Positions 52,516 to 53,781 are shown, counted from the stretch's first letter. The stretch is 64,000 nt of DNA from Escherichia coli (GCF_050920415.1 NZ_CP169309.1); one strand, 5' to 3'. The notes: generated from the letters alone by a model not told the origin. Made by a program: numbers and translations.

Positions 52516-53781
52516 TTAAATTGTTCCATGATCTAGTTTTTTATTCCACAGATGTTTGAAGATATCTAATGTAGAAACGACATTCGCAGGAGACATTCGG
52601 TTCAATGATATAAGGAAAGGATGGTTCTCCACAAAGTGGATAAAACACGTCGCACTGTTCAAAGTTGCATGCCGCATCTCGCGGACTTTCTTACTGCCAG
52701 TGAGATTGCATACAGCCATTGAATAATTGCGGTTAGAAAATGCACGCCAGACATTGTTTCGTACCCCACCACTAAGGAATAATCGCGGTGGAAAATCAAT
52801 GCTGGCAGGTGCCACACCGCGCTCTTTGACAAAGGAAATATGGCAGCGACCTTGATGAATATGCTGCAAATAAGCCATCAGGCATCCGCCCAATATAAAG
52901 CATTCGTGATCAAGGTAATGCTGAACGTTAATGGAATGTTCATCGGTCAGTATTCTGACCAGTTCAAAATGACGATATGCAGGAAGAACCGGCTTCACCA
53001 GCATTCCCGGATCGTTTTGATGTAAAACTGCCGGGCCGTAATCAATATCAAACAAGGTATCCCGCCGCATAGTGAGTAACTCTTTGCGTTGGACATGATG
53101 TGCCAGCGTCCCTGGAGGCATACGCTCTTCATAGCTCGATGTGTATTGATAATGTTGCTCTACGGCAGATGGGGAGTAATTGGTTGAGATGGCAACCACC
53201 CTGCCGCTTTGTTCTTCTGCGGTAACAAGAGCATAAAGAGAGTTATTGCTACCATTATACTTGACGCGAAAAGCACGGGTACTCAGGGTAATATCAGAAG
53301 CAGGCAAACACTGTCGACTTTCTTTATAGTTTGCTCCACGCGCTAATTTTAACAGTTCTCGGCTAAGTCCAGTGCTGTTAAGAAGTAATGACTTTCTGAT
53401 ATCCGCAAGTGCCTCCCCTTGCTCAATCATCAATGCTAACTGGGCTCCTCGTGGTGTGGTAATTACATGTTCCAGAGTGATAAATGTTTTCTCACAATGA
53501 TGGCAATACATTCTTCTCTGGCCTTGTGCAGAATATCCATATTTTTTGAGAGACGTACTTCCGCAAGTTGAACATTGGCAAATCAAACCTCTCCAGGAGT
53601 GATTCACAATATTACGATAAATATTAAGCGACTGTTCAGATATCACTGGAAACAAGTAACCACATTCACGGCATAAAATATTTTTACCCTGTGCGACATA
53701 ATCCTGGCTATTCAGCAACCCCAGGTTTTTACATCCTGGTGTTTTGCAACAATCAACATTTACGTTGGTAAACATATCCAC
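52516..53781 (-). CDS. Hypothetical protein with two N-terminal zinc-ribbon motifs (IS1 InsA / IS1595-transposase-like); function unknown
   Basis: 421-aa ORF. N-terminus has CCKTPGCKN...CRECGYLF and CQCSTCGSTSLKKYGYSAQGQRRMYCHHCEKTF; the second resembles the InsA zinc ribbon (CPxCxxxxxxxNGKxxxGxQRYxCxxCxKTW). No radical-SAM CxxxCxxC motif. Confidence 0.6.
   Translation of the reverse strand: MDMFTNVNVDCCKTPGCKNLGLLNSQDYVAQGKNILCRECGYLFPVISEQSLNIYRNIVNHSWRGLICQCSTCGSTSLKKYGYSAQGQRRMYCHHCEKTFITLEHVITTPRGAQLALMIEQGEALADIRKSLLLNSTGLSRELLKLARGANYKESRQCLPASDITLSTRAFRVKYNGSNNSLYALVTAEEQSGRVVAISTNYSPSAVEQHYQYTSSYEERMPPGTLAHHVQRKELLTMRRDTLFDIDYGPAVLHQNDPGMLVKPVLPAYRHFELVRILTDEHSINVQHYLDHECFILGGCLMAYLQHIHQGRCHISFVKERGVAPASIDFPPRLFLSGGVRNNVWRAFSNRNYSMAVCNLTGSKKVREMRHATLNSATCFIHFVENHPFLISLNRMSPANVVSTLDIFKHLWNKKLDHGTI

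Follow-up and report, generated by a model that had tools for sequence, protein, structure and literature searches.

In eukaryotes there are well-documented cases of DDE transposases that were domesticated as host proteins, SETMAR being one that turned into a DNA-binding or regulatory protein. For bacteria, such events have to our knowledge rarely been documented, and transposase-like genes are usually dismissed as debris of insertion sequences (IS). DeoR and CytR, on the other side of the comparison drawn here, are local one-component regulators of nucleoside genes. PGBD1 is another eukaryotic domesticated transposase (PMC9538788). The InsA protein of IS1 combines a zinc finger (ZF) with a helix-turn-helix (HTH), binds the inverted repeats of IS1 and represses the IS1 promoter PIS1 (PMC12428005). 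The present report concerns a gene of Escherichia coli, here termed gene X, which is located between a sulfatase gene and nhaA on the minus strand of a 64,000-nucleotide stretch of DNA (the window; GCF_050920415.1, NZ_CP169309.1). With high confidence, gene X descends from the gene of an IS1-type transposase, has become immobile and is now maintained by selection as a single-copy host gene.

On the minus strand the local gene order is dnaK, dnaJ, mokC, a gene for an OmpK/Tsx-like channel, the sulfatase gene, gene X, nhaA and nhaR, and the 4.4-kb region harbouring gene X is 100 % identical to that of strain MFDS1022581. An earlier interpretation of the window, made without knowledge of its origin (in the following, the sequence-only reading), had placed an open reading frame (ORF) for a protein of 421 amino acids at 52516..53781 (minus strand). 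The ORF is present, but its length counts from a mechanical GTG start at 53781. Because a ribosome-binding site (RBS; AGGGAG) precedes an ATG at 53775, the coding sequence predicted by PGAP comprises 1260 nt and all aligned homologues (23 of 23) start with MF..., the gene probably extends over 52516..53775 (stop codon included) and codes for a transposase-derived protein of 419 rather than 421 amino acids. Residue numbers given here refer to the 419-residue protein; those of the 421-residue version are two higher (D163, D247 and E293 for D161, D245 and E291, respectively). The name assigned by PGAP is 'IS1/IS1595 family N-terminal zinc-binding domain-containing protein'.

The N-terminus of X indeed carries two four-cysteine units, only the second of which conforms to the C-x2-C...C-x2-C pattern originally ascribed to both: zinc ribbon 1 (residues 10–38; 53662..53748, minus strand) reads C10-x4-C15...C35-x2-C38, whereas zinc ribbon 2 (residues 68–94; 53494..53574, minus strand) reads C68-x2-C71...C91-x2-C94. 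In an alignment of 56 family members spanning 17–97 % identity, the cysteines are kept in 93–95 % (ribbon 1) and 98–100 % (ribbon 2) of the members, and the AlphaFold2 (AF2) model of X places β-strands at residues 26–29, 32–35 and 41–43 of ribbon 1. The proposed resemblance of the second unit to the IS1 InsA/IS1595 ribbon was borne out by three lines of evidence: the NCBIfam model NF050000 (IS1_IS1595_Zn) scored 30.4 bits against X (cut-off 28), the Pfam model Zn_ribbon_InsA matched 7 of the 56 family members at E <= 0.001 and 21 at E <= 0.1, and alignment of the X family profile with IS1 InsAB' (hhalign) paired residues 64–147 of X with residues 4–90 of InsA, i.e. zinc ribbon plus HTH, with 96 % probability and E 3e-9. 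The InsA-like HTH region of X comprises three helices (residues 108–153; 53317..53454, minus strand). One relative, P0064, aligned with positions 1–140 (of 199) of the IS1 transposase model of NCBIfam (E 8e-7). Ribbon 2 also resembles the ribbons of IS1595 and IS1249/IS256-variant transposases. A Pfam scan of X itself returned no significant match, and a PDB sequence search with X yielded generic C2H2 zinc-finger noise only. Among the PHROGs, weak matches of the ribbon region were obtained to phrog_1191, a family of 90 positions labelled 'transposase' (X, E 4e-4; two relatives, E 1.4e-4 and 3.6e-3), and, for X, to one family of unknown function (E 0.0097).

Past the N-terminus, no NCBIfam model matched X. 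The Pfam DDE models PF03400 (DDE_Tnp_IS1) and PF12762 (DDE_Tnp_IS1595) matched none of the 56 family members, and the NCBIfam IS1 equivalog NF033558 reached 22.4 bits (cut-off 100), covering model positions 1–39 only. The impression that the remaining ~300 residues resemble nothing recognisable therefore stands at the level of sequence, but not at the level of the fold, where the HTH (residues 108–153) and an RNase H-like core (residues ~158–419) are predicted. While structure prediction from 24 close homologues resulted in an unusable model (predicted local distance difference test, pLDDT, 51), that from 56 diverse sequences reached a pLDDT of 93.3 and a predicted template modelling score (pTM) of 0.93. 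In this model, ribbon 1, a helix, ribbon 2 and the three helices of residues 108–153 precede the core, which is of the RNase H-like, DDE-transposase type (52519..53304, minus strand). Residues 161–288 adopt the order β1-β2-β3-α-β4-α-β5 and are followed by helices, a four-stranded, β-rich sub-domain (residues 311–357; 52705-52845, minus strand) and C-terminal helices. Structure comparison of the model scored 11.9 against Tn5 transposase (241 residues aligned), 11.4 against ISCth4 (IS256 family), 10.0 against piggyBac, 9.1 against Hermes and about 8 against retroviral integrases and Mos1 as well as against the PIWI domains of Argonaute, which are RNase H-like, too; matches to LuxR-type HTH domains (7–8) account for the HTH. 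A Foldseek search against the PDB was in weak agreement (ISCth4, probability 1.00; PIWI domains, E about 1e-4). Since the predicted fold matches transposases where sequence searches find none, the C-terminal region is, on the evidence of the model, a transposase catalytic-core fold that is invisible to sequence methods.

Within this core, a single column is universally acidic among the 56 members, namely E291 (52 Glu, 4 Asp) just past β5. The centre of β1 is occupied by a conserved threonine (T166, 82 %), and the variable residue after β4 precedes the nearly invariant Pro262, the residues of X having been mapped onto catalytic positions by secondary structure and not by three-dimensional superposition. 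On these three grounds a family-wide DDE triad is, as judged from the alignment, absent from the X family. Strong conservation is also seen in the core at N199, Y211, R238, Y246, H269, F270, H286, H290, W343 and N411.

X thus shares with IS1 InsA and InsAB' the succession of a four-cysteine ribbon, an HTH and an RNase H-like core. Unlike these proteins, it possesses an extra N-terminal ribbon and a core that is about 110 residues longer, includes the β-rich sub-domain and has no detectable sequence similarity to InsB, and its score is far below the IS1 equivalog cut-off. Unlike IS1, moreover, gene X is single-copy and immobile and lacks inverted repeats, a frameshift site and the family-wide DDE triad. 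Judged by model cut-off, DDE domain, inverted repeats and mobility, X stands outside the IS1 transposase family; judged by its predicted structure, it belongs to the superfamily of RNase H-like transposase folds. Tn5 (IS4 family) and ISCth4 (IS256/Mutator family) share 8–10 % sequence identity with X, their catalytic acids are not conserved in it, and transposon ends are missing from X.

As already supposed from inspection of the sequence, no inverted repeats define an IS at this locus: between 52200 and 56800, neither terminal inverted repeats nor target-site duplications bracket X or the sulfatase module, the only matches being 14–27 nt long, 70–93 % complementary and at chance level. A clear DDE triad together with flanking inverted repeats, which the sequence-only reading had named as the mark of an ordinary IS transposase, was accordingly not found. 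Gene X was detected in 1275 of 5426 complete E. coli genomes, in each of them as exactly one copy at one place and always on the chromosome; no genuine plasmid or phage copy was found, apparent ones being mislabelled chromosomes or contigs. Orthologues of 64–66 % identity occupy the same dnaJ–nhaA site in Salmonella and Klebsiella, where X is the last gene of a cluster composed of a Tsx-like channel gene, the sulfatase gene, a radical-SAM/SPASM gene for an anaerobic sulfatase-maturating enzyme (anSME) and X, with a gap of 25–28 nt between the latter two (12–28 nt with locus L008 included). A relative of 33 % identity closes the same four-gene cluster at another chromosomal site. Gene X is passed on by vertical descent and closes an operon of the genes for the Tsx-like channel, the sulfatase and, where present, anSME.

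Alignment of E. coli K-12 with the window (blastn) delimits the extent missing from K-12 to 52526..56525. In place of the 4.0-kb module, K-12 contains 72 bp (L022 3172-3243). Of the X reading frame, the final ~10 nt and the stop codon are left, the remnant of the 3' end being AACAAATTAA. Because this 3' end is still present as a scar, the absence of the module from K-12 is judged to be a deletion and not the ancestral state.

The ratio of non-synonymous to synonymous substitution rates (dN/dS) of X between two E. coli alleles is 0.099 at a dS of 0.9, and that of the E. coli sulfatase is 0.055. Between genera, synonymous sites of X are saturated and the proportion of non-synonymous differences (pN) amounts to 0.16–0.24 with no frameshifts, the reading frames being intact across five genera at 54–97 % identity. 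By these measures X is an intact host gene under strong purifying selection.

Among 1.84 billion representative proteins, which were searched exhaustively, 101 relatives were found, and about 35 of these are full length with 22–60 % identity. In the AlphaFold database (AFDB), the family is represented in Enterobacterales (Atlantibacter, Enterobacter, Serratia, Proteus), in Vibrionaceae (Enterovibrio, Vibrio, Photobacterium) and in Celerinatantimonas and Alginatibacterium; Thiocapsa, Geobacter and other organisms have more distant relatives of 570–640 amino acids. Each of the 13 arrangements examined has a single family member directly beside sulfatase/anSME, UshA-like 5'-nucleotidase, deoD, nupC or deo genes. 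Co-directional clusters are formed by the Tsx-like channel gene, the sulfatase gene and X without anSME in both E. coli alleles (window, L023), and by the Tsx-like channel gene (divergent in Salmonella), the sulfatase gene, anSME and X in L002-L008, while a sulfatase-anSME pair runs convergent to the X member in L016 and L018. A UshA-like 5'-nucleotidase gene is divergent from the X member in L019, L020, L024 and L025 and has it immediately downstream in L026. In the remaining cases, xapX, deoD and the X member are co-directional (Vibrio, Photobacterium and Salinivibrio; L015, L021, L027-L029), or the X member is divergent from nupC-deoD (L012) or from tal-add-deoCABD (L010). Such placements are typical of local regulators and, since the neighbours include deo, deoD, nupC and UshA-like genes, the X family is not sulfatase-specific. 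As is the case with the local catabolic regulators DeoR and CytR, family members adjoin deo, deoD, nupC, ushA-like or sulfatase genes, with CRP-like sites in the promoters; unlike DeoR and CytR, they are built from zinc ribbons, an HTH and a transposase core.

Database names within the family are conflicting ('cytoplasmic protein', 'IS1 family transposase', 'lactate dehydrogenase'), and no Pfam model covers the core. In Vibrionaceae, where the xapX-deoD-X clusters are located on chromosome 2 (L029 4968-6434; L021, L027, L028, L015), the labels 'lactate dehydrogenase' and 'IS1 family transposase' are probably misannotations.

The InsA-type ribbon with its HTH, the DDE-transposase fold, the lack of inverted repeats, the single copy, the synteny across genera, the dN/dS of 0.10 and the lack of a family-wide triad together argue for domestication of X. 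The sequence-only reading had also suggested a role as regulator of the adjacent sulfatase module. Transposase derivation and domestication are upheld by fold, synteny, selection and the missing inverted repeats; the regulatory part is compatible with the DNA-binding module and with the conservation of the neighbouring genes, and in our estimate there is an even chance that X acts as a local DNA-binding regulator. Taken as a whole, the view that X is an exapted transposase of the zinc-ribbon-bearing IS1/IS1595/IS1249 kind and probably a local DNA-binding regulator or sensor that acts on neighbouring genes is slightly favoured. X has kept the end-recognition module of a transposase (InsA-type ribbon and HTH), with an extra four-cysteine ribbon in front, together with the RNase H-like core fold, and has lost terminal inverted repeats and mobility. 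On this reading, it would bind specific DNA near its own operon, much as InsA represses its own promoter, and thereby control the adjacent scavenging genes. The dead catalytic core may serve oligomerisation and possibly the binding of a small-molecule effector. By analogy, the action of X would come closest to that of InsA, which is a DNA-binding repressor, and to that of domesticated transposases of eukaryotes, PGBD1 among them. In contrast to PGBD1 and SETMAR, X is bacterial and embedded in a metabolic operon.

Several observations weigh against this reading or limit it. Promoter footprinting and alignments retrieved CRP-like TGTGA-N6-TCACA sites only and no operator motif for X, and literature searches found no expression, binding or mutant data on the X family. 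Beyond the HTH, the core of X gave no confident alignment with IS1 InsB, neither by single-sequence hhalign nor with an IS1 profile, the latter being built from near-identical IS1 copies only (effective number of sequences, Neff, 1.7). Since the core is unalignable to InsB and the ribbon also resembles those of IS1595 and IS1249/IS256-variant transposases, the parental IS is, from sequence, narrowed to the zinc-ribbon-bearing IS1/IS1595/IS1249 kind and no further. In a paralogue of 376–378 amino acids (25 % identity), both zinc ribbons are present and the HTH segment is missing; its gene is located between metL and metF and runs divergent from a gene for a UshA-like 5'-nucleotidase (L019 7001-8131, E. 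coli KE47; L020 6995-8131). Because this paralogue beside UshA-like genes has no HTH, HTH-mediated DNA binding is not general to the family. The record of L020 is labelled as a Pseudomonas plasmid; the genes present (metJ-metB-metL...metF, rpmE, priA) and the WP accessions suggest a Klebsiella chromosome. Finally, D161, D245 and E291 are invariant inside the enteric clade, for which reason X may have residual catalytic activity there.

The last point leads to the least improbable of the alternatives, albeit an unlikely one, according to which X is still an enzyme and not a regulator, i.e. a nuclease or recombinase whose RNase H-like scaffold would carry a non-canonical active site and which would act on DNA or RNA. 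Candidate catalytic residues would be E291 with the conserved histidines 269, 286 and 290, or the clade-specific set of D161, D245 and E291. The strong conservation of polar core residues (R238, H269, H286, H290, E291, N199, Y211, W343, N411) is compatible with such a function, as is the presence of PIWI domains among the RNase H-like fold matches. A conserved acid is, however, missing family-wide at the β1 and post-β4 positions, a PADLOC search gave no defence-system matches, and the gene neighbourhoods are metabolic rather than related to defence or recombination.

The gene neighbourhood, in turn, could be taken to indicate that X is not a DNA-binding protein at all, but a cytoplasmic accessory factor for the neighbouring exported hydrolases, such as an anSME partner or a pre-export chaperone. 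To this proposal, which we likewise regard as unlikely, the short distance of 12–28 nt from anSME to X in Salmonella, Klebsiella and L008, the export of both the sulfatase and the UshA-like enzymes and the HTH-less paralogue lend themselves well. Escherichia, however, keeps X under purifying selection though anSME was lost, other family members adjoin the cytoplasmic DeoD or the deo operon, and X is devoid of any radical-SAM or chaperone signature. Moreover, the InsA-type ZF with its HTH is a DNA-binding module (PMC12428005).

Very improbable is the view, also raised by the sequence-only reading, that the sulfatase island was brought in by a mobile element of which X is a remnant, now in decay. 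The patchy occurrence of the module in E. coli (found in about 1271-1275 of 5426 complete genomes and absent from about 77 %), its G+C content of about 0.42–0.45, which is lower than that of the flanks, and the frameshift in the ompK gene of this strain would suit such a remnant. Decay is, however, contradicted by the dN/dS of 0.10 and the intact frames across five genera, and delivery by a mobile element is at odds with the presence of the module at the same site in Salmonella and Klebsiella, with the K-12 absence being a deletion that left the X 3' end, and with the position of X as an operon member 25–28 nt past the anSME gene; this proposal was therefore abandoned. That X might be the transposase of an ordinary, still or recently mobile IS, as the IS1/IS1595-type ribbon, the transposase fold and the name 'IS1 family transposase' given to relatives in some databases would have it, can practically be dismissed in view of the missing inverted repeats and target-site duplications, the single copy at one fixed locus in 1275 genomes and never on plasmids, the syntenic orthologues across genera, the IS1 equivalog score far under the cut-off, the lack of the Pfam DDE domain in all 56 members and the lack of a family-wide DDE triad.

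Returning to X as a domesticated transposase with a regulatory role, a more specific and rather doubtful extension would regard the family as undescribed one-component regulators that arose from a dead IS1-type transposase and control scavenging genes across Enterobacterales and Vibrionaceae. The ribbon and HTH would read the operator, and the former active-site cleft, lined by R238, H269, H286, H290, E291 and W343, would bind a nucleoside-related effector. The genes controlled would be those for the sulfatase, the UshA-like 5'-nucleotidase, DeoD and NupC as well as the deo genes. If this were true, the Tsx-like channel/sulfatase module would be expected to act on a sulfated nucleoside-like substrate. 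The X family is conserved, selected and immobile, and is tied to loci for nucleoside, nucleotide and sulfate-ester scavenging in pathogens (E. coli, Salmonella, Klebsiella, Vibrio). Should the regulatory role prove true, X would represent a new transcription-factor architecture, a widespread misannotation would be corrected, and a handle would be gained on a sulfatase operon of uncharacterised function at the chromosomal landmark dnaKJ–nhaAR.

The sulfatase gene upstream of X (53904..55397, minus strand) codes for a periplasmic sulfatase with matches to the NCBIfam arylsulfatase and choline-sulfatase models. Residue 79 of its formylglycine motif is a serine (SSPSR) in both E. coli alleles (window, L023), whereas a cysteine takes its place (CSPSR) in Salmonella and Klebsiella and at two more distant loci (compared: L002, L005, L008, L018), all of which keep the adjacent anSME. 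Escherichia has lost the radical-SAM/SPASM anSME gene and keeps X and the sulfatase, the latter nonetheless being under strong purifying selection in E. coli. X itself was also considered as the sulfatase maturase and rejected as such: Pfam and NCBIfam searches detected neither a radical-SAM CxxxCxxC motif nor a SPASM or formylglycine-generating enzyme (FGE) match, and in other genera the true anSME is encoded by an adjacent gene of its own. The first gene of the module (55418..56178, minus strand), for the Tsx/OmpK-like channel, is frameshifted in this strain according to PGAP, both ORF halves matching NF008574, and is intact in E. coli RHB23-SO-C02 (L023).

Between the sulfatase stop codon and X, a hairpin (53826..53856, minus strand) with a 14-bp stem is followed by TCTTTT. 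It is conserved between E. coli, Klebsiella and Salmonella, the Salmonella stem showing compensatory changes, and probably represents a terminator- or attenuator-like element that acts as intra-operon attenuator or stabiliser. The anSME deletion of E. coli extends from just past this hairpin to the RBS of X. A CRP-like site (TGYGA-N6-TCACR; 56290-56305, minus strand) is located about 115 nt upstream of ompK, and the divergent promoters that separate UshA-like genes from X paralogues (L019, L020, L024, L025) have conserved CRP-like sites as well.

In the Salmonella locus (L002 404-4599, 9376-11091), two arylsulfotransferase genes and a gene for a UshA-like 5'-nucleotidase lie beside the Tsx-like channel gene, so that genes for sulfate-ester and nucleotide scavenging are linked in one island. 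Elsewhere in the window, the region between rpsT and nhaR (~44000-50200) is AT-rich, with a G+C content of 0.30–0.41. The fimbrial operon located between rpsT and nhaR (L001 1320-6831) has its chaperone and usher genes frameshifted or truncated in this strain.

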